A program made the position numbers and the translations under genes. Under the pieces are notes generated by a model. That model had not been told where the DNA came from and did not search any database. It saw only the letters and a list, made by a program, of their open reading frames with translations. A stretch of 64,000 nt of DNA from an uncultured delta proteobacterium (lineage in GTDB: Bacteria > Myxococcota_A > Polyangia > Polyangiales > Polyangiaceae): assembly GCA_963841435.1 (NCBI GenBank), contig CAWJCS010000002.1, forward strand, positions 64,001 to 128,000, in the 5' to 3' direction. Every line of letters begins with the position of its first letter. The stretch's first letter is position 1. Below are positions 21,143 through 44,109 of the stretch, piece by piece.

Positions 21143-21502
21143 TTACCAGCGGTGACCGCCGCCGCCGCCGCCGCCGCGACGCGGGCCACCACGGCCACGG
21201 TCGCCGCCGCCGCCGCCGCCGCCGCCCCTGAAGCCGCCGCCGTCCGGGCGCGGCCGACGCTCCTCGGCGATGTTCACGCGGAGCGGACGCCCCTCGAGAT
21301 CGGCGCCGTTCAGCTCGTCGATGGCACGCTGCGCTTCCTCGTCCGTCGACATGGACACGAATGCGAAGCCGCGCGAACGGCCGCTCTCGCGGTCGATGAC
21401 GAGCTTGACCTCCGCGACCGCACCGCACTGAGCGAAGGTGCGTTGCAGCACGTCCTCAGTGGTGTGAAAGGAGAGGTTTCCCACGTAAAGCCTGTTGTTC
21501 AT
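21143..21502 (-). CDS. RRM RNA-binding protein with Gly/Arg-rich tail
   Basis: RNP2 LYVGNL, RNP1 RGFAFVSM and an RGG tail; AAGGA RBS. Confidence 0.95.
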   Translation of the reverse strand: MNNRLYVGNLSFHTTEDVLQRTFAQCGAVAEVKLVIDRESGRSRGFAFVSMSTDEEAQRAIDELNGADLEGRPLRVNIAEERRPRPDGGGFRGGGGGGGGDRGRGGPRRGGGGGGGHRW

Positions 21503-21700
21503 CAGCGTTCCTTTTGTTGCGGCCTTCTTGCGCCTGTGTGGCGCTCTAACTGTCCCGAGCCCGGAGACCGCGATCCCGAACGCCGGCTGGCAACGAACTG
21601 TCTTGCCTCACAGGCTTGGAAACGACTTTCCGCAATCGCCGGAGGGCGACGGACAGCCAGGCGGTTACCGAAAACGCTGTGTGGCGCCTCACATAGCGCC
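21503..21700 (-). promoter_or_regulatory. Long structured 5' leader of the RRM gene
   Basis: Four-way junction at 21597-21657, two GCGCCACACAG copies, and a GCGCC-ACACA-GGCGC hairpin near the RBS. Confidence 0.5.
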
Positions 21701-21742
21701 TCCGAAAGCGTGGCGCAACGGCGGCGCAGGGGGGGGTCAAGC

Positions 21743-21771
21743 TTGACTTCTACGCGAGAAAAACCTACTAT
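21743..21771 (+). promoter_or_regulatory. Sigma70-type promoter for the second RRM gene
   Basis: TTGACT-N17-TACTAT in an AT-rich patch. The -35 lies within the palindrome GTCAAGCTTGAC. Confidence 0.7.
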
Positions 21772-21972
21772 CTCTAGAGAAACGCGAGCGTTCTCGGCAG
21801 GATCCTGCTGCGTGGCGCTCGGCGCGCACGCGGCCCGCCCGGTGGCCGTCTGGCGTTCGACGGCGGCGTTCGGGCCGCGTCGAGGATTCGCCGCGGCTTG
21901 CCCGGGCCGTGAACCCTCCTCGATCACCCAAGCGGCGAGCCGCCGTGCCACCAGAACCAGCAGCGGAGCCCG

Positions 21973-22578
21973 ATGACGACCAAGCTCTACGTAGCGAGCC
22001 TGCCGCTCGACCCGAGCACCGACGACCTCACGGCGTACTTCGGCCGTTGCGGCGAAGTGCTGAGCGTCCGGCTCGTCGCCGACCGCGAGACGGGGCGCGC
22101 CCGCTCCGCGGCGATCGTCACGATGGGTGCCCACGGTGACGCTCGGCGCGCCGTGACGGAGCTCGACGGCATGGTCTACGAGCGCAAGGTGCTGGCCGTG
22201 AGCATCGTGCGCGAGCAACCGTTTGGCGACGACGATCGCTCCGCGAAGAAGGGCACGCCGCGTCGTGACCTCAAGGCACGCATCACGCAGCAGTTCCGTC
22301 AGCTCGAGAATCTGACGTACGAGCTCGACTGCGCGGGCACGCCACTCGTCCTCCGCATGTTCTTTCCACTCGAGCAGGGCCCCACCGGCCAGTGGCGCCT
22401 CGAGGCGCGGGCGAGCCATGCCGACGACGCTGCCGTCGTGCACGCCAGCGCCACGACGCGCCGCCAAGCTCTGCTCAACGTCGCGGCGCGCTGTCGTTCC
22501 GACGACCCGCTTCACCCTTTCCCCAACGTCGACTGGGAAGCCGTCGAGCAGGCCCTCGGCGACGTGCGCGCGCTCTGA
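21973..22578 (+). CDS. Degenerate RRM domain fused to an unknown C-terminal domain
   Basis: KLYVASLP and VADRETGRARSAAIVTM (RNP1 aromatics lost), plus about 110 additional aa. Confidence 0.85.
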   Translation: MTTKLYVASLPLDPSTDDLTAYFGRCGEVLSVRLVADRETGRARSAAIVTMGAHGDARRAVTELDGMVYERKVLAVSIVREQPFGDDDRSAKKGTPRRDLKARITQQFRQLENLTYELDCAGTPLVLRMFFPLEQGPTGQWRLEARASHADDAAVVHASATTRRQALLNVAARCRSDDPLHPFPNVDWEAVEQALGDVRAL

Positions 22579-22621
22579 GTCGCGTTCGAAGGCGCGGCAT
22601 CGAGCCGCCGTCGCGGCGCGC

Positions 22622-22730
22622 TCAGGGCACCGTGAGCGAGAGCACGTTTTCGTTGGGGTCTTTGAACCACGCCACCGCCCGAACGGCATCGGGCTCGGGT
22701 GTTGCTCGTCGACGACGACCCCGCGCAGCG
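22622..22730 (-). pseudogene. VOC/glyoxalase-family C-terminal remnant
   Basis: Not in the ORF track. The minus strand reads VAWFKDPNENVLSLTVP*, matching the AWFKDPDGNxL VOC terminus. Confidence 0.6.
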
Positions 22731-22940
22731 CCGAACGGGTCGACGCCGGCTTGCCCGCCGCCGAGCAAATCCGCCGCATCTTTCCACGGCAACGAGCGCT
22801 CATCGCGAGTGACGATGTCTTGGTCCGTTCATCGGTGCGCGATCATCGCCCGAGCCGCCGAGTTGCTCTTCGGACCGCGTCACACGAGCGTCACCGTCGC
22901 TTTGGTGGCCCGCTCGGTCGGAGATGCTAATTTGTCAGGT

Positions 22941-23726
22941 GTGTCCTCGTCGGAGTTCGCTCGCGAGTTCTTCGATACCGGCTACCTGGTCCTCAGGGGC
23001 TTCTTCCCCCAGGCCCAGGTGGCCGTCCTGGCGGCGGCCTTCGACCGCCTCGAAGCCCGGGCCCAATCCCTCACCTCCACGGGAAACGTCGGCGAAGCCC
23101 TGTTCGTGGTGGAGGCGGGGTCGTCTCCCGTGCGCATCGATCGCATCGTGTGGTGCGGGGGAGCCGAGCCGGTCCTCGGGGAGCTCGGCCGCGCGCCCCG
23201 GCTGCTCTCGCCCGTGGCGGCCCTGCTCGGGAGCCGCGAGATGGACCAGCTCATCAACCAGGCTCACATCAAAAACCCCGGGGACGGCGTGGCCTTCGCC
23301 TTCCACCAGGACAGCTCCCACCGCCGGTATGGCACGGACCTTTTCCACGACGTGAACGGTCGCGGCAGTTTCGTCCAGACCATCACCGCGCTCGACGCCA
23401 TGAACGAGGACAATGGCGGGCTGTTCGTGCTGCCCGAAAGTCATGGTCGCGGGCACGTGCCGACCCAGGACGGCCGCCTGCCCCCCGAAGCGTTCGACCT
23501 CTCGCACGCGGTCCCGCTGCGGCTCGACCCGGGCGATACGGCGCTTTTGAGCCCGTTCGTCGTTCACGGCAGCGGGCCGAACCACGGAGCCACCAAGCGC
23601 CGCTTGTTCATCAACGGTTTCGCCTCGCCCGGTGCAAACCGGCGCGAGTACCCCGGCGCCGGTCGCGGGCTCCGAGTCGTCGCCCCCGGAATGCGCAACG
23701 GCGTGGGCCCGTCGCGGGCGGCCTGA
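22941..23726 (+). CDS. PhyH-family Fe(II)/2-oxoglutarate dioxygenase
   Basis: GYLVLRGFF, FHQD, ALD...NGGL.VLP.SH, VHGSGPN and RR: HxD...H triad present. Confidence 0.88.
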   Translation: MSSSEFAREFFDTGYLVLRGFFPQAQVAVLAAAFDRLEARAQSLTSTGNVGEALFVVEAGSSPVRIDRIVWCGGAEPVLGELGRAPRLLSPVAALLGSREMDQLINQAHIKNPGDGVAFAFHQDSSHRRYGTDLFHDVNGRGSFVQTITALDAMNEDNGGLFVLPESHGRGHVPTQDGRLPPEAFDLSHAVPLRLDPGDTALLSPFVVHGSGPNHGATKRRLFINGFASPGANRREYPGAGRGLRVVAPGMRNGVGPSRAA

Positions 23727-23808
23727 CTTCGCGCGGCCCCTCCGGGCCGTGCGGGCTTGCCGGACGGGCGAGCGCGCCCTATGTACGGTCGAAATTCGGA
23801 GGAAGCCC

Positions 23809-24321
23809 TTGAATCCAGCCTTGATTCGCTGTGTCCTTGCCGCGAGCTTCGTGGCGTGCGGCGGCAGCCAGCCGCCCGCGGAGTCCGCGCCTGCGCCCGC
23901 TCCCGCGGCGTCGGCGCCGGCGTCGGTGTCAGAGCCGGTCGCCACCGAAGCCCCCATGCCTGACGCCTTCGACGACATGAACCGTGACCAGCGCATGACG
24001 TTCATGAAGACGAGCGTGATGCCCAAGATGCGCGAGCTGTTCCAGAACTACGACTCGGCTCGCTATGCGGACTTCGGTTGCGTCACTTGCCACGGTGCCA
24101 GCGCCAAGGACGGCACCTTCAAGATGCCGAACCCCGAGCTGCCGAAGCTGCCGAGCACGCCAGAAGGCTTCAAGGCGCTCGGGGAGAAGAACCCCGGCGC
24201 TATGCAGTTCATGGGCAAGGAGGTAAAGCCGACGATGGCCTCCCTGCTCCATGAGGAGCCGTTCGATCCGAAGACGGGCAAGGGCTTCGGTTGTCCCGAA
24301 TGCCACACGTCCGGGAACTGA
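23809..24321 (+). CDS. Diheme c-type cytochrome lipoprotein
   Basis: GGAGG RBS plus TTG start; lipobox FVAC; CVTCH and CPECH. Confidence 0.85.
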   Translation: MNPALIRCVLAASFVACGGSQPPAESAPAPAPAASAPASVSEPVATEAPMPDAFDDMNRDQRMTFMKTSVMPKMRELFQNYDSARYADFGCVTCHGASAKDGTFKMPNPELPKLPSTPEGFKALGEKNPGAMQFMGKEVKPTMASLLHEEPFDPKTGKGFGCPECHTSGN

Positions 24322-25055
24322 GCGAGCTTCTCGCGCGAGCCGAGCGGGTGCTCGCGTTCACGGGCGCCGGCGTGTCCACGGCGAGCAACATCCCGGATTT
24401 TCGAGGGCCAAATGGCGTTTGGCGCACGCGCACGCCCGTCGAGTTCGACGCTTTCATGAGCGACGAGGAAGCGCGCGCCGAGTACTGGTCCTTCAAGCTC
24501 GAGGCGCACGCCGGCTTCCGTAGCGCGCGTCCCAACGCCGCACACACCGCCCTCGTCGCGCTCGAACGTTTGGGCAAGCTCGAGGCCATCGTCACGCAGA
24601 ACATCGACGGTCTTCACCGCGATGCCGGCACCTCGCTCGAAAAGCTCGTCGAGCTGCACGGAACGCAAGCCGAGGTCGTGTGCATGAGCTGCGGGCGCCG
24701 CCAGCCCGTCCAGGGGCCCATGGAGGAGTTCGAGCGCACGCGGCGGCCGCCTTCGTGTGTGCCGTGCGGTGGCATCCTCAAGCCGGGCGTCGTCATGTTC
24801 GGCGAGGCGCTCGACGAAGACACGCTGCGGCGCGCGTACGCGGCCGCGCGGCGCGCCGATCTCGTGCTGTCGCTCGGATCGTCGCTCGTGGTCACGCCCG
24901 CGGCCGACGTGCCGCTCGTCGCCGCGCGGCGCGGTGTGCCCTACGTCATCGTGAACCGCGGCGCGACACCGCACGACGCGGTCGCCACCCTCACCCTCGA
25001 CGACGAGGTGGGCGCGGTGCTCGAGGCGGCTGTCGCGCCACTCGTTGCCGGCTGA
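24300..25055 (+). CDS. cobB: Sirtuin NAD-dependent protein deacylase
   Basis: FTGAGVSTASNIPDFRG, TQNIDGLH, ELHG, CxxC...CxxC, KPGVVMFGE, GSSLVV, IVN. Confidence 0.93.
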   Translation: MPHVRELSELLARAERVLAFTGAGVSTASNIPDFRGPNGVWRTRTPVEFDAFMSDEEARAEYWSFKLEAHAGFRSARPNAAHTALVALERLGKLEAIVTQNIDGLHRDAGTSLEKLVELHGTQAEVVCMSCGRRQPVQGPMEEFERTRRPPSCVPCGGILKPGVVMFGEALDEDTLRRAYAAARRADLVLSLGSSLVVTPAADVPLVAARRGVPYVIVNRGATPHDAVATLTLDDEVGAVLEAAVAPLVAG

Positions 25056-25100
25056 GCGGGCCGAGGCCGGGCACTCCCGGAACCGCCGCCCCGTGGCTCC

Positions 25101-25146
25101 CCATGTGTTGCCAAATGCAACATATGGTTTGATGCTATTTGGGACA
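25101..25146 (+). promoter_or_regulatory. Tandem enhancer-like (bEBP) binding sites
   Basis: Inverted repeat CCATGTGTTGC-caaat-GCAACATATGG plus a degenerate second copy TGATGCTATTTGGGACA, offset by 24 bp. Confidence 0.6.
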
Positions 25147-25185
25147 CCAGCTGATATTGTCCATGAAATCATTGTGTTTTTTGGA

Positions 25186-25201
25186 TGGCACGCGACGTGC
25201 T
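25186..25201 (+). promoter_or_regulatory. Sigma54 -24/-12 promoter
   Basis: TGGCAC-GCGAC-GTGCT, one mismatch to consensus, 29 nt before an ATG and upstream of a bEBP gene. Confidence 0.75.
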
Positions 25202-25229
25202 CAAGGGGTTGGCTCAAGGAGGCTTCCTC

Positions 25230-25409
25230 ATGAAGCACGTTCTCGGAAAATCGATCGCCATCGCGACCCTGCTCGCCATCCCGTCCGCCGCCATTGCGAG
25301 CACCCTTGCGCCACCCGCCAGCCCCATGGCTGACGAGAAGCCCAAGGCCAAGCCGAAGGCGAAGGACATGAAGAAGAAGGATCATCCGGCTCCGGCTCCG
25401 TCGAAGTGA
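25230..25409 (+). CDS. Small secreted Lys/Pro-rich peptide (59 aa)
   Basis: AAGGAGG RBS; signal peptide MKHVLGKSIAIATLLAIPSAAIA; mature part ...DEKPKAKPKAKDMKKKDHPAPAPSK. Confidence 0.75.
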   Translation: MKHVLGKSIAIATLLAIPSAAIASTLAPPASPMADEKPKAKPKAKDMKKKDHPAPAPSK

Positions 25410-25532
25410 CGGGTGGCCCGCGAGGGGTTCCAAGCGGGCAGAAATTCGAACGCCTGGCGCGCGCGGGGTCTCCAAGAGCCCCCGCGCGCCAGGGCGCAGG
25501 GGCGGAATTCGTTCGTCGCCGTCGAGGTCGCC

Positions 25533-25973
25533 ATGAAGAGCGTCGAGAACTACACCCCTTTGAGCCTTGCCGTTTCGCCGCGGGTTTTGCTGGCGGAGGA
25601 CGACTCGAGCCTGAGGATCTTGATCGCCCAGGCGCTGCGGCAAGATGGCGTCGAGGTGATCGAGATTGCCGACGGCAATGCGCTCGTCGACCATCTCGCC
25701 GAAGGGGTGGCGAAGGACGGGTCGCTCGACGGTTTCGACCTGATCGTTTCCGACATCCGCATGCCTGGCTTCAATGCCCTCGAAGTGATGGGTGGCCTGC
25801 GGCGGCTTCTCTCGCGCACGCCCGTCGTTTTGATCACCGCGTTCGGCGATCCGCGGACGCATCAACGCGCGAAGCAGCTCGGCGCCGCGGCCGTGCTCGA
25901 CAAACCTTTCGACATCGATCAGCTGCGTGCCACGGTGGCGCGCTTGCTCGAACAGCGGAGGGCGAGCGGCTGA
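25533..25973 (+). CDS. Stand-alone response-regulator receiver
   Basis: VLLAEDD, SDIRMPG, ITAFG, KPF. Confidence 0.92.
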   Translation: MKSVENYTPLSLAVSPRVLLAEDDSSLRILIAQALRQDGVEVIEIADGNALVDHLAEGVAKDGSLDGFDLIVSDIRMPGFNALEVMGGLRRLLSRTPVVLITAFGDPRTHQRAKQLGAAAVLDKPFDIDQLRATVARLLEQRRASG

Positions 25974-29864: not shown

Positions 29865-30050
29865 TCAGGAGAGCTCCATCTCGTCGTCCGTTTCCCCGTC
29901 GGACGAAAGCGGTGTGCTGATGCGGTAGGTCCCGGTGAGCCAGTGGTAGAGGTCCACCTTCTTGCAGCGCTGGCTACAGAAGGGGCGCGAGGGGTGGTCG
30001 TCGGGGGCGTCCTCGATGACCGACTTGCAGATGGGGCATACGATGCGCAT
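29865..30050 (-). CDS. yacG: DNA gyrase inhibitor YacG
   Basis: CPIC...RPFCSQRCKKVDL..W...YRI. Confidence 0.92.
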   Translation of the reverse strand: MRIVCPICKSVIEDAPDDHPSRPFCSQRCKKVDLYHWLTGTYRISTPLSSDGETDDEMELS

Positions 30051-31336
30051 CACGACCTCGACGCCTCGAGCGCTTCGCGGGCGGCCCGGATGGTCCTGTC
30101 GATGTCGTCGTCGGTGTGGGCAACCGACAGGAACGCTGCCTCGAACTGCGACGGCGGAAAGTACACGCCGCGAGCGAGCAGCTCCCTGAAAAAGCGAGCG
30201 AATCGCTCGGTGTCGCTCGCGAGCGCGGCGCGGAAATCCCGCACGGGGCCAGCGTGGAAGAACAACGTGAGCATGGAGCCTACACGCTGCACGACGCCGA
30301 CGCTCTGGGTCGCTTCGAGCGCGTGCGAAAGCCCCGCCTGGAGCCGCGCGCCGAGCGCTTCGAGGCGCTCGTAGGCTTCGGCGTCGAGCCGAGCGAGCGT
30401 CGCGAGACCCGCTGTCACGGCGAGCGGATTGCCGCTGAGCGTGCCCGCCTGGTACACGGGCCCGAGGGGCGCCACGACCTCCATCACCTCACGGCGGCCG
30501 CCGTACACGGCGAGTGGCAGCCCCCCGCCGATCACCTTGCCGAGGCACGTGAGGTGGGGCCGGAGCCCGAACCGCTCCTGGGCGCCGCCGCGCGCCAGGC
30601 GCGAGCCGGTCATCACCTCGTCGAAGATGGCGAGCGCACCGTGCTCGTCGGCGAGCCGGATGATGGCCTCGAGAAAACCGGGAAGCGGCGGGACGCAGCC
30701 CATGTTGCCCGCGACGGGCTCGACGATGACCGCGGCGATCTCGCCGCCACGCGCACGAAATAGCTCCTCGAGCGCCGCGGCGTCGTTGTACGGGAGCGTC
30801 GCCGTGGTCGCCACCATGCCTTGGGGGACGCCCGCCGAGTCGGGGTTGCCGAACGTGGCCGCACCGCTGCCCGCCTTGACGAGCAGGGCGTCGGCATGGC
30901 CGTGGTAGGCGCCGTCGAACTTGACGATCACGCTGCGTCCCGTGAAGCCGCGTGCGACGCGGAGCGCGCTCATGGTCGCTTCCGTGCCGCTCGACACGCA
31001 GCGCAGCATCTCGATGCTCGGGTAGCGTTCGCGTATGGCGCGCGCGAACTCGACCTCGAGCGCCGTCGGGGCGCCGAACGAGAGCCCGCGCTCGGCGGCG
31101 GCCTGGACGGCGGCGGTGACGTGCGGCTCGGCGTGACCGAGGATCGCCGGGCCCCAGGAGCCGATGTAGTCGATGTACTCTCGGCCGTCGGCTCCGAACA
31201 GGCGCGAGCCGCGGGCGCGGTCGATGAACACGGGGTTGCCGCCGACGGCGCGAAAAGCGCGCACGGGGCTGTTCACCCCACCGGGGAAGAGCTCCTTGGC
31301 GGCGCGGAAAAGCTCCTCCGAGACGGCGTCGGCCAT
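30050..31336 (-). CDS. hemL: Glutamate-1-semialdehyde 2,1-aminomutase
   Basis: PGGVNSPVRAF, SWGPAILGH, SGTEATM, YHGHAD, FDEVMTG, GKVIGGGLP, YQAGTLSGNP, PSQFE. Confidence 0.98.
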   Translation of the reverse strand: MADAVSEELFRAAKELFPGGVNSPVRAFRAVGGNPVFIDRARGSRLFGADGREYIDYIGSWGPAILGHAEPHVTAAVQAAAERGLSFGAPTALEVEFARAIRERYPSIEMLRCVSSGTEATMSALRVARGFTGRSVIVKFDGAYHGHADALLVKAGSGAATFGNPDSAGVPQGMVATTATLPYNDAAALEELFRARGGEIAAVIVEPVAGNMGCVPPLPGFLEAIIRLADEHGALAIFDEVMTGSRLARGGAQERFGLRPHLTCLGKVIGGGLPLAVYGGRREVMEVVAPLGPVYQAGTLSGNPLAVTAGLATLARLDAEAYERLEALGARLQAGLSHALEATQSVGVVQRVGSMLTLFFHAGPVRDFRAALASDTERFARFFRELLARGVYFPPSQFEAAFLSVAHTDDDIDRTIRAAREALEASRS

Positions 31337-31365: not shown

Positions 31366-34351
31366 GTGCCATGCTTCTCGGGCGTGGTGTCGTTGGGAGC
31401 CGAACACGAGCTTTCTCGGGCTTGCTTCTTGCCGACTTGCTTGGTCCTCGCCGGGCTAACGGTCGGCTGCGGCTCGCTCGATCCCGAGGCGCTGCCGCTC
31501 GCCCGCGATCTTCGCTTCAACGAGGTCGTTTCCGCCAACGGGGGCGTTTGGGTGGACGAGCTCGGCGAGACCGACGACTACGTCGAGCTCTACAACGCGA
31601 GCGACCGGACGCTCGGCCTCACCGACTACGTCATCGAGGATCGCGGCGGCGAGCACGCGCTCCCGAACGTGAGCGTCGAACCAGGAAAGACCCTGCTCTT
31701 GTGGGCGGACGGCACCCCCGGGCAAGGTCCGTTGCACTTGCCGTTCAAGATCGCGTCCGAGGGCGAGCACCTCGCGCTCCTGCGTCGCGAAAGCCGCGAG
31801 GAGCTCGATCGCGTCCAGGTCCCGCCGCTCGAGGAGCACCACGCGTTCGAGCGGCTGCCGAGTGGCGACGGGCCGTTCGTCGACTGCGGCTGGGCGACCC
31901 CGTCGCGCGACAACGGGCGCCGCTGCGGGCCCGGCCCGCCACCCCCGCCGCCCGGCGACCTGTTCTTCTTGCCCTACACGTGGCCCGAGGTATGGCCCGA
32001 TCCCGTCACGCCGCTTTCGCTCACCGAGATCGATCTCGGCCCGTCGGGCTTCGTCGAGGTGGAGAACACCTCGGGCGGCGAGCTCGGGCTCGACGCGTTC
32101 GAGCTCGGCGTGGCCGCGAACGAAAGCGTCGGTGTCGCGTTCCCAGGGCCCGAGGGGGGCGTGCGGGTCGAGTGGCCGAAGGCGAGGCTCGGCGCGGGTG
32201 AGCGCCTTTCGGTGCCGCTCGACCCCAATCTGCTCGACGAGCTCGGCGACGCGCTCCTCGCCGACGGCGCGGTGTCGCTGTTTCGTCGCGAAGGCGGCAG
32301 CGTGGATCGCGTGCCGTTCACCGGGTTCCCGCGGGGCGCGGTGCTCGCGCGTGCCGAGCCGGGCGGCACCTTCCGCTTCTGCACCAACCGCACCCCGGGA
32401 GCGCCGAACGACGAATGCGACGAGCTTGGCGAGCGCAGCGTCGGGGACTACGAGCGAGCGCTTTTGACCCCCGACGACTTTCACGAGCTCGCCAAGGCAC
32501 GCGGTGGCGTCGGCGCGGAGTCGGTCGAAGTCGTCGTCAACCTGCAAAATGACGATGCCGTCTATTTCCTGAACTCTGGGAGCTTCGACCTTCACTACAC
32601 CTTCGTGCGCGAGCGTATCGACGGCGATCCGCATCTGGATCGCTGCGACCCCGAGCAGGGTCGCGAATACACCGACGGCTGGGTCGCGTTCAGCCGCGAG
32701 CAGTACTTCCAGGTGACGGGGCGGCGCTACCTACTCGGCACGCTGGTCCGGCACGCGGGCACCGACCTTTCGACGATCGAGTTCGCTCCGGGCGACGTGA
32801 TCAGCGCCGAGCAGATGACGCGCCTGTTCTTCGACGTGACGGCGCGGCTCCCCGATCCGAAGGCCTGGAAGCTGCGCCCGCAGACCCAGGACCAGATCGA
32901 CCGGCTGCGCGCCATCGAGGGGTCGCTGCCGATCGTCGGCCCCAACGCGCCGTTCGTCGGGCTCACGTTCCAGGCGCTCACGCCGGGCGTCGCCTACGGC
33001 ACGCTGCGCTTCGTGCCGTCACAGGAGGTCGAACTCGGCCCCGATCGGCCCGCGCGACATCGTCGTCACCGACGAGGTGCCGAACGACATCCCTCTCATC
33101 GGCGGGCTCGTCACCGAGGCGTTCCAGACGCCGCTCGCCCACGTCAACGTGCTGAGCCGCGGACGCGGCACGCCGAACATGGCGCTCCACGACGCGCGTC
33201 ACGACCCGCGCCTTTTGCCCTACTTCGACCAGGTGGTGCGACTCGAGGTGTCGGGAACCGACTTCGACGTGGCGCCCGCCGTGCCCGAGGAGGCGCTTGG
33301 GTACTGGCAGAGCAGGCTACCGTCCGAGCCGCGCGTTCCCAGGATGGACACGAGCGTTCGCGGCGTGCAGCCGCTCTCGGAGCGTGGGCTCGCCGACATC
33401 CCGTCGATCGGTGGGAAGGCCGCGCAACTCGCAGAGCTCGGGCGCGTTTCGCTTTGTCAGGGTCCCGTGTCGACGCCGGATCGCCCGTTCGCGATTCCGG
33501 TCGTGCATTCGCTCGAGCACTACCGGGCGAGCGGGGCGCTCGCTCTCTTGGATCGGCTGCGGGCCGACCCGAATTTCGAGGTCGATCCGCTGGCGCGCAG
33601 CCGCGGCCTCGCTGAGGTTCGCTCGCTCGTCACCCGCTACCCGATGGATGCCGACCTGCTCGCCGAGGTTCGCGCCGCCGTGCTCGAGCGCTGGCCGGGC
33701 GTGGCCGTGCGCTTTCGGAGCAGCAGCAACACCGAGGATCTGCCGGGCTTCAGCGGCGCCGGGCTCTACACCTCCGAGGGCGTCGACGCCCAGGACATCC
33801 CCGCCGGCATCGAGGACGCCGTGCGTACCGTTTGGGCGAGCTTGTGGGAGCGACGCGGCTACGAGGAGCGGGAGTTCTCGGGCGTCGACCAGCACTCGGT
33901 GGCGATGGCTGTGCTCGTCCACCCGGCGTTTCGCTCGGAACGCGCGAACGGCGTTGCCATCAGCCGGGACGCGCTCCAGCCGACGCGCAACGACCGCTAC
34001 TACGTGAACGCCCAGATCGGCGAGGCGCTCGTCACCAACCCCGCGCCCGGCATCGAAAGCGACGAGCTGACTTACTCGCTCTTTCGCGTGCCGCGCGTGC
34101 AGTATTTCTCGCACAGCACCTTCTCGCCCGCCGTGCCCGTGGCGAGCGAGGCCGAGCTCGGCTTCCTCGTCTGCAACCTCCAGCAGATCCACGAGCATTT
34201 CCGGCCGCTGCTCGATCCCGAACAGAAGAACCCGTGGTTTGCGATGGACATCGAGTGGAAGCTCATGGGCGACGAGCGCGCGCTCGTCATCAAGCAAGCG
34301 CGCTCGTACTCGTTCGGCGCCGAGACGCAGTATGGCTGGTGCGATTTTTGA
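31366..34351 (+). CDS. Lamin-tail-domain lipoprotein with phospho-His and PEP/pyruvate-binding (ATP-grasp) dikinase domains, frameshift at ~33032
   Basis: Lipobox LTVGC; LTD motifs FNEVVSAN, DYVELYN and HLPFKI; TPLAHVNV; IGGKAAQL; RSSSNTEDLPGFSGAGLY; VWASLW; MDIEWK..IKQAR. Start is uncertain. Confidence 0.82.
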
Positions 34352-34370: not shown

Positions 34371-37300
34371 TTAGCCCTGCACGCGCCGCGCGCGGTCGTT
34401 CAAGACGACGCGCCAGGCATCGAGCCGGCCGCGCGCGAGGTCGGACCAGCGAAAGTGAAAGAGCCGAGCGAGCAGCTGCGGGGCGTGGTCGCCGGCGCGG
34501 GATCGCGGACCGAAAACCTCCGCGGCCGATTCGACGGATTCGAGCGCCTGATCGAGGTCGTTGTTCTCGGCCTCGAGCCAGGCACGCGTGAGCAAGAAAT
34601 GCTGGCGCGGCTCGGGATCTTCCACGGCGATGCGGCTGCACTCTTCCAGTAGCTCGCGCGCCCGCGCGGAATCGTGTCGGAAGAGCGAGACCTGCGCGAG
34701 GATGAGCTTGGTCTCCATCACGCCCCAGGGGTCGTTCGTCTTGGCGTAGAGGCGATGCGCGCGCTCGCCGTGCATCTCGGCCATTTCAACGTCGTCGGTG
34801 TCGATGCCGATCATCGCGAGCAGGCGGTCGCAGGCGGCCTGGCCGCGCGGCGTGCGTAGCGTCTCGAAGACGGCGAGTGCCTCGAGCGCGCCGACCTCCG
34901 CGCCGTGGTAGTTCATCAAACGGTGCTCGACGTGCGCGAGCGACGCGTCGGCCTGCGCCGTGCCGAGGCGGTAACCAGCGCGCTCGAACTCGGCGCGGGC
35001 TTCGGACGCGAAGCGCCGGGAGCGCTCCGTGGCGCCCTCGGAATGCTCGATCCACGAGAGCAGGAGCAGACATTGCCCTCGACCGAGCGGCTGATCGAGC
35101 TCCGCGAAGTTTCGCTCCGCGTGCACGATGGTGTCGCGGGCCTGCTCGTAGTCGCCCAGCATGTACTCGATTTCCCCGGCCACCGACTGACACAGCGCCT
35201 TGCCGAGCACGTTGCCGAGGCCCTCGAAGGTCGCGAGCGCGCGGCGCACGAGCTCCAGGCCCTCCGCGGACGCGCCCTGCTCGCTCGCGAGGTGACCGAG
35301 CAGGCGCTGGCAATGTGCGATGTTTTCGCCGTCGCCGAGCTCCTCGAAACGCGAGCGAGCGAGCTCGGCGTACGTGCTCGCCTCCGCCATACGCCCGACG
35401 TGCCCCAGCGCCTCGGCTTGCCAGCGGTTCTTGAGAGCCAGGGTGCGCCCGCGCAGCTTGCCCTTGAGCAGCTCGAGGTCGGACAGCGTGGCGAGCGGCT
35501 CGCGCGCACCGTTCCAGCTTTGCTGCAAGAAGTCGAACAGCAGAAGCGCGGCGGTGTCCGAATCGTTCGCCTCGATCAGGTTTACCATCCGCTGGCGCAC
35601 GATGCGGCGCTCGTTCGCGAGCGGGTGCAGCGTGAGCGCGGCGGCGGCGGCACGGAAGATCTTCGCGCGATCGGCGCGGCCCTGGAGCCGTGACAGGAGG
35701 TGCTCCTGCAAGAGCTCGTGGGGCCAGCTGTAGCGGCCGGGCCCACGCGGGATCAGGACTTCGGCGTTGGCCAGGCTCAGCATGGCGCTGTCGGCGGGCT
35801 GCCCGAGCGAGCTCAAAAGGGCGTGCAGCACGTTGCGCCGCACGTCGCCGCCGAGCGTCGCCGCGGCGTAAGCGGCGACGCGGTGCTGCTCCGGCACGGC
35901 CGCGAGCCGGCTGTCCCAGAGCTCCGCGGTCGTCTGCGGGCGCACCAGCAGCACGTCGTTCGGGACCTTGTAGACGCTGCCGCGAAACTCCATGTGCCCG
36001 GAGAGCGCCCACGCGTGGAGCTGCTGCAGCGCGAACAGCGGGTTGCCGCGGCTGCGCCGCGCCGCTTCCTCCGCGGCGGCTTCGTCGAGGGGCAAGGACT
36101 GGCGGATGAGCTCGAGCGTGCGCTCGGGTGTGAGCGGCGGCACCTCCATCACGGCGCCCCTCGTCGCCTCGCGGAGCTGCCTGAGGCGCTCGGCGGCCGA
36201 CGTGCCGAGCGCGACCTCCTCCGAGCGCGCGGTGACGAGCATGAGAATCCGCTGGTCGGGCTCGTCCTCGAGAATGCGCAAGAGGCCGTCGATCGTCGCG
36301 GGCCCGGCGTTGTGCAAGTCGTCGAGCCAGAAAAGGAGCGGGCGCTTGCGCGAGATCTTGCGCAGGGTGTAGCGGATCACCATGCGCCGCGTCTCGAGCG
36401 TGTCGAGCGTGAAGCGGATGCCGCTCGGACCGATGGTCTGCTCGGGGCCCATCGGACGCAGCCATTCCGCTGCGCCGGCGACCCAGGCGCGCCCGTTCTT
36501 GTCGTCGCGGCGCACCTTCCAGCGATCGAGCAACGAGCGCTCGATGGTGTGCCGGTCGACGCGCTCGAAGTTGTAATAGGAAAGGACGGCGCCGAGCATG
36601 CCGTCGAGGGGGCTTCGGATGGCGCGGTAGCGGGCGCGCAACGGCACCATCGCGCCTTCCTCGTGCGTCACCTCGCACAGCCACTCGGCGATGCGGCTCT
36701 TGCCCGATCCGGCGGGCCCGACGAGCATCGCCATGCGGTGCGGCGTGCCTTCGCCGTCGACGAGCTCGTTGTACATCTGGCGCAGCGTCGAGCGCACTTC
36801 CTCGCGACCCACGAGTGGGCTCGGGCGGATGCTGAGCAAGCCCGGCGGGCGGTCGGGCGCCGGCTCGAGATCGGGGTTCGGCGACTGCGCGCCGCTCGGA
36901 CGCGTGGGCGCCGGTTGCTCGCTCGCGCGCTGCGGCATCTGGAAGCGCCAGGTCTTGACGTCGGCGCCCGGTCGCCAGCGCGACCAATCCGCGCGTGCCT
37001 CCGCCGCGAACTCCCAGCGATCCCAGGGTCGCTTGGCGAGCAGGCGCATCACGAACTCGACCACGCCGGTCGGCAGCTCGGTGACCGGTTTGAGCTCGGG
37101 CGGCGGGTCGAACGCGTGCACCCGGAGTAGCTCCTTCGAGTTCCCCGAGAACGGCGCCTTGCCGCCGAGCATTCGGTAAAGGACGCAGCCGAGCGCGTAG
37201 AGGTCGGTGGCCCCGCACACGTGGTGCATCTCGTGCTGGATCTGCTCGGGCGCCATGTAGCCCGGCGTCCCGGCGCCGGCGTGCGGCGCAAACTCCATGG

Positions 37301-38192
37301 GTTTCGAGCCGCTCAGGCGCTCGTCCTGGGCGTCGAGGCGCAGCCAGGCGAGCCCGAAATCCAGCACGTGGATCGTGGGAGGCTCGGTGTCGTGGCGCTC
37401 GACGAGAACGTTCGAGGGCTTGAGATCACCGTGGATGACGCCGCGTGCGTGAGCGTGGGCGAGCGCCGCGAGGATCTGATCGACGATCGACCAAATGATC
37501 GGAAATCCGAGGCGTGCGTGCGTGAGATCGTGCAGGGACGCCCCCGTCACGAGCTCCATGGCCAAGAAGGGCGAGCCGTCGCGCAGCTGTCCGAAGTCGT
37601 GGGCGCGCACGATGTTCGGGTGGTCGAGGGCCGCGAGCGCGCGCGCCTCCTTGTAGAACCACATCACGTACTCGTGAGCGAGGTTGCCGGGCGGCGGGAT
37701 GACGCGCTTGATCGCAACGTGCTGCTGCGTCGAACGGTCCCGGCAGCGATAGACGATGCCCATGCCGCCCTCGCCGAGCACGCCGAGCACGTCGTAGCGG
37801 TTCGCGATGATGTGCCCGGGCAGCACGGCGGTGCTGCCGCGCGGGCTCGGATGGACCGAAGCCGCAGCGGCCGAGGGAATGCTCGGGGGCGCGCTGTCCG
37901 GGCCCTCGCCGCGCTCCGCGACCACGCGTGGGGCGGGCTCCGGATCCGTCTTTGGAGGCTCGGGACGGTCGGCGTCGACCTCTGCGATGTCGCTCTCGTC
38001 GATGCGCGCGTCCTCCTCGACGGGATCCCTGGTCACCGCGCCCGTGCCGGGCTGGGCCGTCGGGGCTCGGGCGTCACCGGTCGAGCGCGAGTGGGTGCTC
38101 GGATCTGGACGCACGGCGGCCTGTGGCCGGGGCTCCGATGATTCTTCCGGCGCTTCGCCCTCGTCGTTGCCGGCTCGGCTCGGCGTTGGCAT
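34371..38192 (-). CDS. Ser/Thr protein kinase with AAA (STAND-like) ATPase and TPR domains
   Basis: GEGGMG, AIK, HGDLKPSN, DFG, GTPGYMAPE; GPAGSGKS; LDDLH; GNPLFA; C-terminal TPR-like helices. Confidence 0.93.
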   Translation of the reverse strand: MPTPSRAGNDEGEAPEESSEPRPQAAVRPDPSTHSRSTGDARAPTAQPGTGAVTRDPVEEDARIDESDIAEVDADRPEPPKTDPEPAPRVVAERGEGPDSAPPSIPSAAAASVHPSPRGSTAVLPGHIIANRYDVLGVLGEGGMGIVYRCRDRSTQQHVAIKRVIPPPGNLAHEYVMWFYKEARALAALDHPNIVRAHDFGQLRDGSPFLAMELVTGASLHDLTHARLGFPIIWSIVDQILAALAHAHARGVIHGDLKPSNVLVERHDTEPPTIHVLDFGLAWLRLDAQDERLSGSKPMEFAPHAGAGTPGYMAPEQIQHEMHHVCGATDLYALGCVLYRMLGGKAPFSGNSKELLRVHAFDPPPELKPVTELPTGVVEFVMRLLAKRPWDRWEFAAEARADWSRWRPGADVKTWRFQMPQRASEQPAPTRPSGAQSPNPDLEPAPDRPPGLLSIRPSPLVGREEVRSTLRQMYNELVDGEGTPHRMAMLVGPAGSGKSRIAEWLCEVTHEEGAMVPLRARYRAIRSPLDGMLGAVLSYYNFERVDRHTIERSLLDRWKVRRDDKNGRAWVAGAAEWLRPMGPEQTIGPSGIRFTLDTLETRRMVIRYTLRKISRKRPLLFWLDDLHNAGPATIDGLLRILEDEPDQRILMLVTARSEEVALGTSAAERLRQLREATRGAVMEVPPLTPERTLELIRQSLPLDEAAAEEAARRSRGNPLFALQQLHAWALSGHMEFRGSVYKVPNDVLLVRPQTTAELWDSRLAAVPEQHRVAAYAAATLGGDVRRNVLHALLSSLGQPADSAMLSLANAEVLIPRGPGRYSWPHELLQEHLLSRLQGRADRAKIFRAAAAALTLHPLANERRIVRQRMVNLIEANDSDTAALLLFDFLQQSWNGAREPLATLSDLELLKGKLRGRTLALKNRWQAEALGHVGRMAEASTYAELARSRFEELGDGENIAHCQRLLGHLASEQGASAEGLELVRRALATFEGLGNVLGKALCQSVAGEIEYMLGDYEQARDTIVHAERNFAELDQPLGRGQCLLLLSWIEHSEGATERSRRFASEARAEFERAGYRLGTAQADASLAHVEHRLMNYHGAEVGALEALAVFETLRTPRGQAACDRLLAMIGIDTDDVEMAEMHGERAHRLYAKTNDPWGVMETKLILAQVSLFRHDSARARELLEECSRIAVEDPEPRQHFLLTRAWLEAENNDLDQALESVESAAEVFGPRSRAGDHAPQLLARLFHFRWSDLARGRLDAWRVVLNDRARRVQG

Positions 38193-39654: not shown

Positions 39655-42600
39655 TCAGGGCACGGAGCCGGCGGCCCCGCGTGCGCGCCGTGACAGCGAC
39701 GCGTTCGGGCCGGCGCTGCCGAGGTACGCGCGGACGCCTGGTGCGAGCGGGCGGCGGATGAGCGCGGCGTCGAGCTCGGCCTCTTCCACGGCGGTCGCGT
39801 CGACGAGCAACCGCGTTTCGGCGCCTTCACGCGCGGCGACCGGGACTCCATCCCGATAGAGCACGCGGTTGCCGGCGAGCGCGGCGACGCGGCGCCCCGG
39901 CGTGAGCACTCCCACCACGTTGAGCGGATCGGCGGCGCTCACGGCGAAGAGCGTGCCGTTCTTCGGCAGCTTGCGCGCCGCGCGAAGGCCCGTGACGGCC
40001 TCGGGCAGCGCGTACTGCTCGCCCGTGAAGCCCGCGACGAAGCGTCCGCCGCGGATTTCCCCGCGCGCCTCGAGCCTGCGGTAGCAAGCGAGCAAGTCGC
40101 GCCAGGGTGGCAACGCGCCCTCGCGGTCGATGACGCGCCGGAACACGATGCCCCAGCGCCTCAAGAGCGCGCGAGCGATCGCCTCGACGTCCTCGTCGCT
40201 CGCCTTTTCTTCGCGGCTCGGCGCGGAGAACAACGCCCAGCGGCCGGCGCTCTCCATGCCGAGCACGGCCCCGCGGCCGCGGCGCCGTCCGTGCTCGCTT
40301 TCGCGGCGGCGGCTCGCCGGCACGAGCAGCGCGCGCAGCCCCGTGAAACCGTCGGAGCCAACGAGCCCCCGTGACACGAGCTCGCCGAGCGCCTCCTCCA
40401 CCTCGATACGCAAGAGCCCCGTGGCGCTCACGACGTCGTCGAAGAACGACGCGCCCGAGCGCTCGAGCGCCGTCTTCACCTTCGCGGCGGCATGCGACAC
40501 GGCTTCGCCGGACCCGGCGGGCGCGAGCGAGGACCAGCGCTCGACGGCGCTGCGCGGCACGAGCGCGATGGGCGTGGAGCGCACGGGCGTCGAGCCCGAT
40601 TCGGTCGGAGTGCGCCGCAGCCAGCTCACCGTGCCCGAAAGACACAGGCCGTCGAGCCACGCCGGATCGTAGTGCGTGACGCGGACCGGCAACGAATCCG
40701 CCTCCCACGAGCCAGCCGGTGCCTCGAACCCTTCGAGCAGCTCGAGCGCGGCGCGCACGCCTGTCGGGCCTTCGAGGCGCTCCGTGCCGGCACGCTGCCA
40801 CGCAAATAGGAAGCGCACGAAATCCTGCTGGGTGACGGGCTCGATCTCGGCGCGCAGCCGGTCGATCGTCATGCGGTGAATGCGCGCGAGCAGGCGCCGC
40901 TCGCACCACTCGACGGCCGCCCGCGGCGGCGAGCGGAAGGTGCCACGGAAGATCACGCCCTCGCTCTCGAGCGCGGCGAGTGCCACCTCGACGTCCGGCT
41001 CGGGCACGTCGAGCGACGCCGCGAGCTCGGCGGCCGTCGTGGGACCCACGCCTTCGAGCCGCGAGCGAAGAAGCTCGCGCAGCGCGACATCGGGCGGCAC
41101 GGGCTCGCCCAGAGCGAGGTCGAGCTCAGGCGACACCGCGGCGCCGGGGTGCACGCTTCGCACCTCCGCGAGCCGGTCGGCCGCGACCCAGAGACCGCCC
41201 GCGGCTTCGACGCGCGCTGCACGCCGGCCGGTCGTCAACGCCGTGAAGAGAGGCGCGAGCCCGCCGCGCATCCCCTCGGCCTCGCTGAGGTAGCCGAGCA
41301 CGCCGAGCATGTCGACGAGCTCGTCGGCGTCGCGCGGATCGGGCCAGGCGTCCTCGCAGACGCGGGCGATCGCCGCCTGGTCGAGCGCGCCGAGGTCCTT
41401 GGCCCGGGCCGGATCGAGCCAGCGGCGGCCGAGCACGGCTTGAGTTCGCCGCTCCTCGAGGGGTGCGTCGTCGAGGAACGCGTAGGGCTTGGCCGTGAGG
41501 ATGCCCGCGGCGAACGGCGAGGGCTCGGTGAGATCGCGCGCCACGAGCTCGACCTCGCGCCGTTCGATGCGCTCGACGAGGCGCACGAGGCCGGGACCGT
41601 CCATCGCCTCGGTGGTGGCGTCGTCGAGCGTCTGGCGGACCAGCGGATGGTCGGGGATCTCGCGCTCGCCCACGAGGTTCTCGGCACAGGCGACTTGATC
41701 AGGGAAGCACACCGTCAGAAGGTCGTCGGCATCCATGCGCTGGAAGCGCGGGGGCACCTTCTTGCCACCGCGGAAGCGCAGGACGGCGAGCGAGCGCTGC
41801 GCGTTCCAGCGAAAGCGCGTGCCGAAGACGGGCGCGACGAGCAGCGCCTGAATCAGAGACGTCGAGCGCGTTCTTGCTCTTCAAGAACGACCACACGTCG
41901 GTCACGTCGAAGCTGTGGGTCGGGCCGAGCGAGAGCACGATGGCGTCCTCGTTGGCGGCGGCCTGCAGCTCGAAGTCGAACTTCCGGCAGAAGCACTTCC
42001 TGAGCGCCAGGCCCCAGGCGCGATTGATGCGCCCGCCGAGCGGCGCGTGAACCACGAGGTGCATGCCGCCCGTCTCGTCGAAGAAGCGCTCGAGCACGAG
42101 GCGATCTTCGGTCGGCATGGCGCCGAGCGCCGCGAGGCCGAGGGCGAGAAAATCCACGATCTGGCGGGCGGCGGCCTCGCCGAGGCCGATCTCGCGCTCG
42201 ACGAACCGGCGAGCTTTTTCCGCACCGTCGGGGTCGGCGAGGAGGTCGGCGACGGTCTCGCGTAGCCGCGACACGGCGTGCGACAGCTCCGCCGTACGCG
42301 CCGGTGCCTCACCGAGCCAGAACGGAATCGTCGGCGCCGCACCGCGGGCGTCCTCGACGCGCACGCGCCCCGGCTCGACGCGGCGGATGACGTAGCTCTG
42401 ATTGCCGAGCTGGAACACGTCGCCCGCCATGCTCTCGATCGCGAAATCCTCGTGAATCGAGCCGACCCGCACGCCCTCGGGCTCGAGGATCACTTCGTAG
42501 TCGGCAACGTCCGGAATGGCGCCGCCCGACGTGATGGCCGTGAGGCGCGCGCCGCGGCGCGGCCGGAGCTTCTTCTCCACCGTGTCGCGATGCACGTGCG

Positions 42601-44041
42601 CGCCGCGGCGGCCGCGCGCCGTGGCGAAGCCTTTGGCGAGCATCGTGACGACGGCGTCGAAGGCGTCGCGCGAGAGCGCGCGATACGGATACGCTCGCCG
42701 GCACAGCCCGAAGAGCGCATCCTCGTCCCATTCGCCCTCGGCGGCGACGGTCGCCACGATCTGCTGCGCGAGGATGTCGAGCGGGGCCTCGGGAAGGCGC
42801 ACCTGGTCGAGCTCGCCGCGGCGCACGGCGTCGACCAGCGCGGCCGCCTCGACGAGCTCGTCGCGCGACAGTGGGAACAGGCGCCCCTTGGGCATCCCGC
42901 CCAGAAAATGGCCGGAGCGGCCGACACGCTGCACGAACGCCGCGATCGAGCGCGTCGCGCCCACTTGTACGACGAGATCAACGTCGCCCACGTCGATGCC
43001 GAGCTCGAGTGACGCCGTCGCCACGAGCGCCGACAGCGCGCCGGACTTCAGCCGCTGCTCGGCGAGCAGGCGATGCTCCTTCGACAGGGAGCCGTGGTGC
43101 GACGTGACGCGTTCCTTCCCGAGCCGGTCACCGAGGTTCTTCGCGAGGCGCTCGCAGAGCCTCCGCGTGTTGACGAAGACGAGCGTCGTCTTGTGCTCGC
43201 GGACGAGCTCGGCGATGCGGTCGAATACTTCCTCCCAAACTTCGCCGCTCATCACGGCCTCGAGCGGCGAGGCGGGAACCTCGATCGCGAGATCGCGCGC
43301 GCGCACGTGTCCCGTGTCGACGATCGCGCAGCGCGGGGTGCCGTCGTCCCCGAGACGTCCCGCGCCGACGAGGAAGCGCGCCACCTCCTCGATGGGCTTC
43401 TGCGTGGCGGAAAGGCCAATGCGCTGCACGCGCCGCCCCGTGAGGGCGTCGAGCCGCTCGAGCGACAGCGAAAGGTGGCTGCCGCGTTTGTCCCCGACGA
43501 GCGCGTGGATCTCGTCGACGATGACGGTGCGCACGCTCGAGAGCATGCGGCGCCCCGACTCCGACGTGAGCAGGATGTAGAACGATTCAGGCGTCGTGAC
43601 GTAGACGTGCGGTGGCCGCCCCGTGGCGCGCGCCCGCTCCTTCTGCGGCGTATCGCCGGTGCGGACGGCCGTGCGCACCTCCACGTCGGGGAGGCCGAGG
43701 GCGGCGAGCGACTCGCGAATGCCCGCGAGCGGCTCCACGAGGTTCTTCTGGATGTCGTTCGAGAGCGCGCGGAGAGGGGAGACGTAGAGCACGCGCGTCT
43801 CGTCCGGCAGCGCGCGCTCGACCCCTTCGCGAATCAGCTGATCGATGGCCGAAAGGAACGCCGCGAGCGTCTTCCCCGAGCCGGTGGGCGCTGCGAGCAA
43901 AACGTCCGTCCCGACCTGCGCGTGCGGCCAGGCGCCTGCCTGAGCGTCCGTGGGCGCGTCGAACTTCGCGCAGAACCAGCGCGCGACCGCGGCGTGCAGC
44001 CCCTGCGTCACTTCCCTCGAAATCGGTGCAGCGCTCGACAC
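39655..44041 (-). CDS. lhr: Lhr-family ATP-dependent helicase, frameshift at ~41857
   Basis: [45 protein letters not shown]-terminal half ends with [17 protein letters not shown]. Confidence 0.93.
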
Positions 44042-44109
44042 GATTCGTTCCAAACGTAGCGCCGGCACCCACTTGACGCGAGAGGGTCCGGGTCCGAAGT
44101 GTTTAGAGC

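Follow-up and report, generated by a model that had tools for sequence, protein, structure and literature searches.

Can an enzyme of the phosphoenolpyruvate (PEP)-utilising dikinase type be at work on the outside of a bacterial cell and, if so, on what would it act? The characterised dikinases (PPS, PPDK, RPH and GWD/PWD) act where ATP is plentiful, be it in the cytoplasm or in the plastid. The question is raised by a gene at positions 31366-34351 (forward strand) of a stretch of 64,000 nucleotides, referred to below as the window, from an uncultured delta proteobacterium of the Polyangiaceae (assembly GCA_963841435.1, contig CAWJCS010000002.1, positions 64,001-128,000 of the forward strand; G+C content approximately 69%). 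A first-pass annotation had read this gene as that of an exported lipoprotein with lamin tail domains (LTDs) and a catalytic end like that of the plant starch dikinases. What it observed is confirmed here, and its interpretation is partly supported. The copy in the window carries a frameshift and belongs to a large family of exported proteins that is so far uncharacterised. We consider it fairly probable, although well short of assured, that the locus specifies a lipid-anchored exported phosphotransferase of approximately 994 residues, of the PEP-utilising dikinase type, which passes phosphate to an acceptor by a swivel mechanism. Because its catalytic end resembles enzymes that phosphorylate starch, the protein would probably phosphorylate something outside the cell.

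The features described here all lie on the forward strand and are given for the protein as read through the extra base that interrupts the gene. The N-terminus is a lipoprotein signal peptide (31366..31470) with the lipobox LTVG-C, the codon of Cys35 being at 31468-31470. LTD1 (31507..31818), an Ig-like beta-sandwich, matches Pfam PF00932 with an E-value of 1.1e-13 (52 bits against a cut-off of 34.3). LTD2 (32017..32382), which is preceded by a proline-rich linker with a conserved Cys-x12-Cys loop, matches weakly in the window (E 0.054); the annotation had named one clear and one probable LTD, and the second is borne out by the pairing of LTD stretches in 33 of the 50 homologues scanned and by a second beta-sandwich in the structural model described below. 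There follow an alpha/beta middle domain of 176 residues (32431..32958), a phosphohistidine-type swivel domain (32959..33319), which holds both the frame break and the motif QTPLAHVNVLSR, and an ATP-grasp domain (PPDK_N; 33362..34330). As had also been noted, the PEP/pyruvate-binding barrel was not found by Pfam in the window or in the 50 homologues. An AlphaFold2 model of P0006, the closest full-length homologue (71% identical to the read-through, P0003), built from a 112-sequence alignment, has a mean pLDDT of 90.4 and a pTM of 0.81. It comprises a signal helix (residues 6-22), LTD1 (39-164), the proline-rich linker (165-205), LTD2 as a beta-sandwich (207-328), the middle alpha/beta domain (345-520), a His domain of seven strands and three helices (524-640), in which the invariant His581 begins the helix 581-589, and the ATP-grasp (660-975). 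LTD1 of this model resembles the Ig domain of lamin A/C (1ifr; Foldseek E 6.7e-4, TMt 0.60).

The ATP-grasp at the C-terminus, where the annotation had placed it, is recognised as PF01326 with an E-value of 3.4e-21 (76 bits against a cut-off of 27), and carries in the window the motifs IGGKAAQ, RSSSNTEDLPGFSGAGLY (33716-33769), DIEWK and KQAR. Across the family the GGK lysine, ‘R-SSSN-EDL’, ‘G-AGLY’, the E/K pair in ‘DIEFK’ and ‘KQAR’ are invariant; in P0006 the residues K673, R773, S774, S776, E950, K952, Q964 and R966 are the same in all 112 sequences, and the conserved ATP-grasp residues are kept in the window. The GGK and RSS motifs align with those of E. coli PpsA and of archaeal PEP synthases, and the C-terminal Glu, Gln and Arg presumably serve, as in PPDK, in binding nucleotide and magnesium. 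When the whole P0006 model was compared with the Protein Data Bank (PDB; copy running to 2026-04-08, which may not contain 9HA9), the first matches were RPH (5hv1, 1.9e-15), PEP synthase (2ols, 4.9e-13), HpeI (9goj, 7.3e-13) and PPDK (1kbl, 1.2e-7); by sequence, only the ATP-grasps of PPS and RPH were matched in the PDB, and no GWD entry. On the PPDK_N match and the nucleotide-binding residues, the ATP-grasp is assigned to the PEP-utilising dikinase superfamily.

The histidine expected to carry the phosphate stands in the window motif TPLAHVNVLSR (codon 33140-33142), as the first-pass annotation had it, and is invariant in the 112 homologues. There is evidence for its identity from a bacterial protein, P0252, whose corresponding stretch is called GWD1_pHisD (PF22973) and PEP-utilizers (PF00391) by Pfam. 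The alignment by BLASTP is collinear from ‘PGVAYGTLRFV’ through the histidine and into the ATP-grasp (27% identity over 368 residues, E 5e-14), and places ‘TPLAHVNVLSR’ on ‘GLLSHPAIQAR’ with the two histidines aligned. Since the ATP-grasp and invariant His motifs are intact and PPDK_N scores above its cut-off, the catalytic competence of the family is supported, as far as conserved residues can indicate it.

The window protein has a short charged N-terminus followed by ‘LVLAGLTVG-C’, which contains the lipobox ‘LAGLTVGC’ that had been recognised at the outset. A [GA]-C lipobox is present in 13 of the 14 homologues of a 15-row alignment. In the larger set, 98 of 112 have a small residue ([GASV]) and a cysteine after a hydrophobic run upstream of LTD1; five of the remaining 14 are truncated at the N-terminus, and three of the other nine have a lipobox by eye. 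The family also has eight conserved cysteines, including two C-x12-C loops, one behind each LTD, a pattern that would be compatible with disulfides. Both the window protein and its family thus appear to bear a bacterial lipoprotein signal. It should be noted that a divergent aminotransferase gene on the reverse strand starts at 31336, which leaves only 29 bases before the GTG at 31366, so that the true start of the lipoprotein may be GTG 31384, GTG 31387 or TTG 31393, any of which would give a signal peptide of more usual length.

Were the signal spurious, the protein would be a cytoplasmic enzyme resembling PEP synthase, with its domains permuted. The nearest characterised homologues are indeed all cytoplasmic or plastidial, and export is inferred from sequence rules. 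Against this stand the lipobox in the 98 homologues, the pyruvate barrel that was not found in the window or in 50 homologues, and, as the strongest evidence, the company that the catalytic module keeps elsewhere: it occurs alongside type IX secretion system (T9SS) sorting domains, RTX, cadherin, fn3 and PKD domains, and a secreted glycoside hydrolase of family GH11 with carbohydrate-binding modules (CBMs). In addition, a strongly hydrophobic 10-mer lies within the first 60 residues of 101 of the 137 Met-started proteins among the best 150 matches to the module (74%), compared with 122 of 2168 internal windows of those proteins (5.6%). A cytoplasmic location is thus largely refuted and we give it hardly any credence; the export that the first-pass annotation had proposed is well supported by these signals and by the associated domains.

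The interruption of the gene needs to be considered, because it bears on whether this particular copy is functional. The annotation had repaired a frameshift at about 33032, and one extra base is found within the GAAC at 33031-33034, with frame 1 upstream and frame 2 downstream. The open reading frame in frame 1 (31366..33615) starts with GTG at 31366 and gives plausible protein as far as ‘...GVAYGTLRFVPSQEVE’, or ‘...FVPSQEVE’, at 33033; from there to 33615 it is out-of-frame text rich in Arg, Pro and Ala. Frame 2 is open across the break site, where it reads ‘SAPIGPRDIVVTDEVPNDIPLIGGLVTEAFQTPLAHVNVLSRGRGTPNM...’, and past the break it continues as ‘SAPIGPRDIVVTDEVPNDIPLIGGLVTEAFQTPLAHVNVLSR...’ to a stop codon at 34349-34351. 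When a single step of four bases is taken at 33031-33034, the resulting read-through, P0003, aligns gap-free at the break with 14 intact homologues, which read ‘FVPSKEIDSTPLGPRDIVV’ where the window has ‘FVPSQEVESAPIGPRDIVV’. Because none of the four-base words at the break occurs in frame only once in the gene, partial read-throughs, not a whole-gene one, were used: 31681-33937 (GAAC as E) and 32635-34351 (CATC as H). A programmed frameshift was ruled out, as the homologues are plain single open reading frames with the same residues across the site.

That the two halves form one gene, as first proposed, follows from the homologues. A search with the read-through scored 8000 candidates and gave 1849 matches; the 120 that were listed comprise seven partial sequences and 113 single proteins, 881-1059 residues long, with both LTD (PF00932) and PPDK_N (PF01326), and identity to the window read-through reaches 71%. 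The window read-through aligns without gaps to single-chain homologues of approximately 980 residues. Both domains are found by Pfam in every one of the 50 homologues scanned.

The extra base reflects either an indel error in the assembly, which is slightly favoured, or an inactivation that happened very recently. If the base is real, this copy would be a pseudogene that yields fragments only and has no function, whatever the family does. The break is present in the deposited assembly, where the second half is called as a separate open reading frame of 424 residues (P0125), and the sequence at the break contains no long homopolymer. However, the window copy retains all 82 invariant columns of the 112-sequence family alignment and 175 of its 181 near-invariant columns (conserved in at least 90%), the six deviations being conservative changes, a retention far beyond chance; as the invariant columns are kept on both sides of the break, any inactivation must be very recent. 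There is also a second split gene nearby. About 8 kb away, a gene for an Lhr-type helicase (39655-44209, reverse strand) is likewise divided by a frame change, inside DEAD_assoc: one part (41699-44209, reverse) holds DEAD, Helicase_C, WH_Lhr and DEAD_assoc profile positions 1-88 of 191, the other (39655-41757, reverse) holds DEAD_assoc 124-191 of 191, WH3_Lhr and WH4_Lhr, and the two open frames overlap at 41702-41880. Two conserved genes split within 9 kb fit assembly indel errors, which are somewhat likelier than two independent fresh pseudogenes. A screen of the window for more broken genes by G+C content at third codon positions did not discriminate. We regard inactivation as a substantial possibility for this copy, although not as the probable one.

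A scan of one genome per species gave 280 relatives, of which the best 80 are nearly all from Myxococcota, from the older ‘deltaproteobacteria’ or unclassified; they include Polyangiaceae, ten complete Sorangium genomes (for example that of So ce56, L067), Nannocystaceae, Bradymonadia and one metagenome-assembled genome of the Cellvibrionaceae. Database names are only ‘hypothetical’, ‘lamin tail domain-containing’ or ‘PEP/pyruvate-binding domain-containing’. Literature searches, the coverage of which left out approximately 1.7 million PubMed Central articles and most subscription journals, returned nothing on an exported or LTD-bearing dikinase.

The closest parallel in layout is with the dikinases that phosphorylate starch. 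GWD and PWD have CBM45 or CBM20 at the N-terminus and PPDK_N at the C-terminus (PMC11986951), and the order in StGWD1 is given as CBM45_1, CBM45_2, central domain, His domain and ATP-binding domain (PMC13553574). The five-part order here, LTD, LTD, middle, His and ATP-grasp, runs parallel to this: in both cases two N-terminal beta-sandwich domains of a binding type are followed by a central domain, a His domain and a C-terminal PPDK_N. The His-then-ATP-grasp order for which the first-pass annotation had invoked GWD and PWD thus agrees with these descriptions. The latter source also describes the His domain of StGWD1 as having three helices and seven strands, with the histidine exposed on a short helix (PMC13553574); the His domain modelled here likewise has seven strands and three helices, with its histidine on a short helix. 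The ATP-grasp motif that the annotation had given for these enzymes, RSSxNxEDLxGxxxAGLY, is present as well: P0251, a PWD-like eukaryotic protein (CBM20, PF22973 and PPDK_N), reads ‘RSSSNVEDLPGMSGAGLYES’, and RSSSNxEDLPGxSGAGLY is common to it and the window.

Similarity scores place the protein in the same neighbourhood, at some distance. In BLASTP with a 571-residue query from the window, P0251 gave 73 bits (42% identity over 114 residues, E 2e-17), P0252 gave 63 bits (27% over 368 residues) and E. coli PpsA gave 50 bits (29% over 222 residues, E 1e-10). With a profile of the family's ATP-grasp, exported relatives score 190-550 bits, P0252 scores 90, P0251 scores 84 (a partial match) and PpsA scores 59. 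These scores suggest that the module is a distinct clade, somewhat nearer to GWD/PWD-like proteins than to PpsA, yet far from them.

The differences from GWD and PWD are equally clear. The N-terminal domains are LTDs and not CBM45 or CBM20, Pfam finding no CBM in the window or the 50 homologues. PF22973, which matches P0251 and P0252, is unmatched here in the window read-through and in all 50 homologues. The middle domain is an alpha/beta domain of 176 residues, whereas the central domain of StGWD1 is described as all-alpha and of 444 residues (aa 483-926; PDB 9HA9, 9QVI; PMC13553574). Finally, the protein is an exported lipoprotein, in contrast to the plastidial plant enzymes. As the starch-binding CBMs, PF22973 and the large all-alpha domain all fail, the protein would work like a GWD-type dikinase without being a member: it is outside the GWD/PWD family and GWD-like in layout. 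Of the GWD-like exported dikinase first proposed, the export, the domain order and the motif stand; membership of GWD/PWD does not.

Comparison with the other dikinases separates the protein from them in a similar way. It shares with PEP synthase and PPDK a homologous ATP-grasp, seen for PpsA in sequence and for 2ols and 1kbl in fold. Those enzymes, however, begin with the ATP-grasp and end in a PEP/pyruvate TIM barrel, which was not found here. The ATP-grasp-first order that had been stated for PEP synthase and RPH is borne out by their models, in which the match lies near the N-terminus (profile positions 6-226 of 798 and 4-218 of 864, respectively); in the present protein it is C-terminal. 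An ordinary PEP synthase was rejected as an identity, given the missing barrel and NCBIfam scores far under the cut-offs (NF005057, 62.3 against 598; TIGR01418, 58 against 739.75).

RPH of Listeria (5hv1) provides the best structural match of the ATP-grasp, and is likewise built of an ATP-grasp, a domain that binds the acceptor and a His domain that swivels. Its order is ATP-grasp, acceptor domain, His domain, the reverse of that found here; moreover, it is cytoplasmic, and its acceptor domain is unrelated to the middle domain, which has no match in the PDB. HpeI of Rhodococcus (9goj), which stands for the split phenol and acetophenone dikinases of the phenylphosphate-synthase type, shares the ATP-grasp fold and the phosphorylation of a hydroxyl on an acceptor other than pyruvate. 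In enzymes of this type the ATP-binding and His parts are separate cytoplasmic subunits; they have neither an LTD nor a signal peptide, and their acceptor part is a different one.

These matches lead to the suggestion that the protein is a surface enzyme whose substrate is a diffusible compound, phosphorylated ahead of its entry into the cell. A rifamycin-type antibiotic or a lignin-derived phenol would be examples, in line with what enzymes of the RPH and HpeHI types do within cells. The top ATP-grasp structures are those of such kinases (5hv1 and 9goj), the ATP domain of GWD is itself nearest to LmRPH according to PMC13553574, and one homologue fused to a GH11 xylanase and CBMs, described below, fits a lignocellulose setting. 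On the other hand, the NCBIfam model of RPH (NF041857) scores 52.7 against a cut-off of 999, the middle domain is unlike the rifampin-binding domain of RPH or anything else in the PDB, and a small-molecule kinase outside the cell would face the same problem of ATP supply as any other. We consider such a role unlikely.

The middle domain lies where GWD has its central domain and RPH its rifampin-binding domain, and is therefore the probable acceptor site; on this analogy it is presumed to be the acceptor-binding domain. Modelled from the window's own sequence, it is predicted with high confidence (pLDDT 95.7, pTM 0.91), and it holds an invariant His, Arg, Cys and Trp. Foldseek gave no match at E<=1e-3 in the PDB (best E 0.08, TM 0.25) or in BFVD, in keeping with the annotation, which had left the type of this domain unassigned. 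Weak RNase-H-like matches, above E 1e-3, were disregarded. In the ESM Atlas the recognition value of 1896 lay under the guide value of 2300 and the clusters matched were phage hypotheticals, so that this comparison was uninformative.

Further insight is gained from relatives that are built differently. When 1.84 billion representatives (clusters at 50% identity) were scanned by HMMER with the second half of the window copy, 3854 proteins were matched at E<=1e-3 and 1924 at E<=1e-10, with 841 clusters at E<=1e-30. The best 150 matches are 240-3769 residues long and nearly all span query residues of approximately 2-430, about twenty being shorter or split; of 25 that were sampled, 13 have PPDK_N and nothing further, whereas 12 add domains of the cadherin, fn3, PKD, Calx-beta, SWM or GSDH type. 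Profiles of the single domains were compared with 157 representatives. That of the His domain matches 152, the five without it being the GWD-like P0251 and P0252 and three fragments; that of the middle domain matches 80, those of LTD1 and LTD2 only 25 and 21. The uncharacterised exported relatives share 30-57% identity over the whole 430-residue module, together with ‘QTPL[AS]HVN’ and ‘RSS[ST]N.EDLPGFSGAGLY’. They differ in lacking the two N-terminal LTDs, or in having one LTD placed elsewhere, and in using other export routes (T9SS tail, RTX repeats). A class of approximately 650 residues (about 630-700; P0274-P0300 and similar) consists of a signal or lipobox with the middle, His and ATP-grasp domains, and the middle-domain profile matches this class too. 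These lipoproteins are the minimal form of the enzyme, to which the family of the window adds two LTDs. A search for short relatives gave mostly fragments of the same family on short contigs.

Amongst longer proteins, a search limited to those over 1316 residues gave 13 matches among 166 candidates. P0243 (1420 residues) has a GH11 xylanase (50-234), CBM2 (269-363) and CBM10 (396-424), followed by a complete LTD-dikinase with 42% identity over 933 residues (P0006 residues 38-970); this fusion is so far the sole hint at a plant cell-wall substrate. P0246-P0248 join the module to CARDB, SprB, an LTD and the T9SS tail Por_Secre_tail, whilst P0240-P0242 are giants in which two modules apiece are accompanied by RTX, cadherin or fn3 domains. 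In all of P0240-P0249, ‘QTPL[AS]HVN’ lies approximately 195 residues upstream of ‘RSS[ST]N.EDL..F.GAGLY’. Doubling of the module is seen more widely, in that P0240, P0241, P0242, P0264 and P0279 are all secreted giants of 2000-3700 residues with two His and ATP-grasp copies set among domains of the RTX, Calx-beta, cadherin and fn3 types. In the giant adhesin-like proteins, which carry one or two such modules, the profile search of the representatives did not detect the middle domain.

Some of these architectures bring to mind a different function, in which the dikinase half-reactions would finally hand the phosphate to water, turning ATP into AMP and two inorganic phosphates, for phosphate scavenging or the removal of extracellular ATP, the LTDs and adhesin-type stalks placing the enzyme at the surface. 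The intact ATP-grasp and histidine are compatible with this, P0240 and P0241 pair the module with Metallophos phosphoesterase and purple-acid-phosphatase-like domains (known from a precomputed Pfam list only), and LTDs are reported to accompany extracellular nucleases (PMC8289736, PMC4486849). However, simpler phosphatases and apyrases already do this job, and a conserved, confidently folded middle domain that accompanies the module in about half of the representatives argues for a specific acceptor. Net hydrolysis of nucleotide, too, we think improbable.

We return, then, to an exported phosphotransferase with an acceptor of its own, for which the following scheme may be envisaged. If the protein works as its homologues PPS, PPDK, RPH and GWD do, the ATP-grasp would bind a nucleoside triphosphate; the histidine encoded at 33140-33142 would accept the beta-phosphate, the gamma-phosphate passing to water; and the His domain would then swivel to the middle domain and hand the phosphate to the acceptor bound there. 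The two LTDs could form a stalk, or could tether the enzyme to the envelope or to a polymer, and the nucleotide would have to come from lysed prey or neighbouring cells, or be replaced by another donor. The acceptor would be extracellular, and we suggest only tentatively, largely by analogy, that it is most likely a polymer such as a polysaccharide; the pointers are the xylanase-CBM fusion P0243 and the parallel with GWD. Thus, of the extracytoplasmic dikinase acting on a polysaccharide that the annotation had envisaged, export is upheld, whilst the polysaccharide is suggested by that one fusion and by analogy.

A number of points weigh against the scheme. The gene is broken in this genome and so may be without function here. 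The chief difficulty is the phosphoryl donor, since to our knowledge there is no supply of ATP outside the cytoplasm. The nearest solved ATP-grasps belong to small-molecule kinases (RPH and HpeI), and the idea of a polysaccharide draws on a single fusion protein and an analogy. On the His domain, PF00391 as well as PF22973 was without a match in the window read-through and in the 50 homologues, and an hhalign comparison of the family profile with the PWD-like P0251 aligned the ATP-grasp core only. Export was judged by simple sequence rules. Lastly, in a comparison of 80 related loci and the window, no neighbour was conserved across the 81; the best clusters, found in 13 of 81, consist of Ser/Thr kinase or sigma-54 regulator paralogues whose positions vary, so that context gives no substrate.

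In the window itself, the gene is preceded on the opposite strand by a class-III aminotransferase (30050-31336, reverse) and by YacG and Hsp33, also on the opposite strand; downstream lies a convergent gene for a Ser/Thr kinase with AAA_16 and TPR (34371-38192, reverse). In eight other loci (L015, at 6558-7709; L017, at 5515-6720; L018, L020, L021, L029, L032 and L040) a CobW/COG0523-type GTPase is encoded directly upstream on the same strand. This sub-clade might be under metal-limitation control; the GTPase is absent from the window. Elsewhere in the window, at 21502-25865 (reverse), three long open reading frames (21502-22803, 22935-24026 and 24063-25865) gave no match to Pfam at E<=1e-3.

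The wider interest of the locus lies in the finding that the machinery of the cytoplasmic and plastidial dikinases, with its conserved motifs intact, occurs on exported proteins of several phyla that use several export routes, and that one of the family's domains, although predicted with confidence, has no relative of known structure. In its broadest form, the proposal is that the module, as seen in lipoproteins, T9SS cargo, RTX and cadherin giants and the xylanase fusion, represents a widespread, so far unrecognised class of extracellular nucleotide-driven phosphotransferases that attach phosphate covalently to polymers (for instance cell-wall or matrix polysaccharides of prey, of plants or of the cell itself), a bacterial counterpart and possibly the source of GWD and PWD, and fuelled by the ATP of lysed cells; this we offer as speculation, and doubt it rather more than we believe it. 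Bacterial proteins with the domain order of GWD and PWD make the origin of starch phosphorylation testable by phylogeny. If the module is active outside the cell, either it has a donor or a reaction so far unknown for this fold, or bacteria use extracellular nucleotides on external substrates, which would be a new extracellular chemistry with a place in predation, the breakdown of biomass or biofilm matrices.

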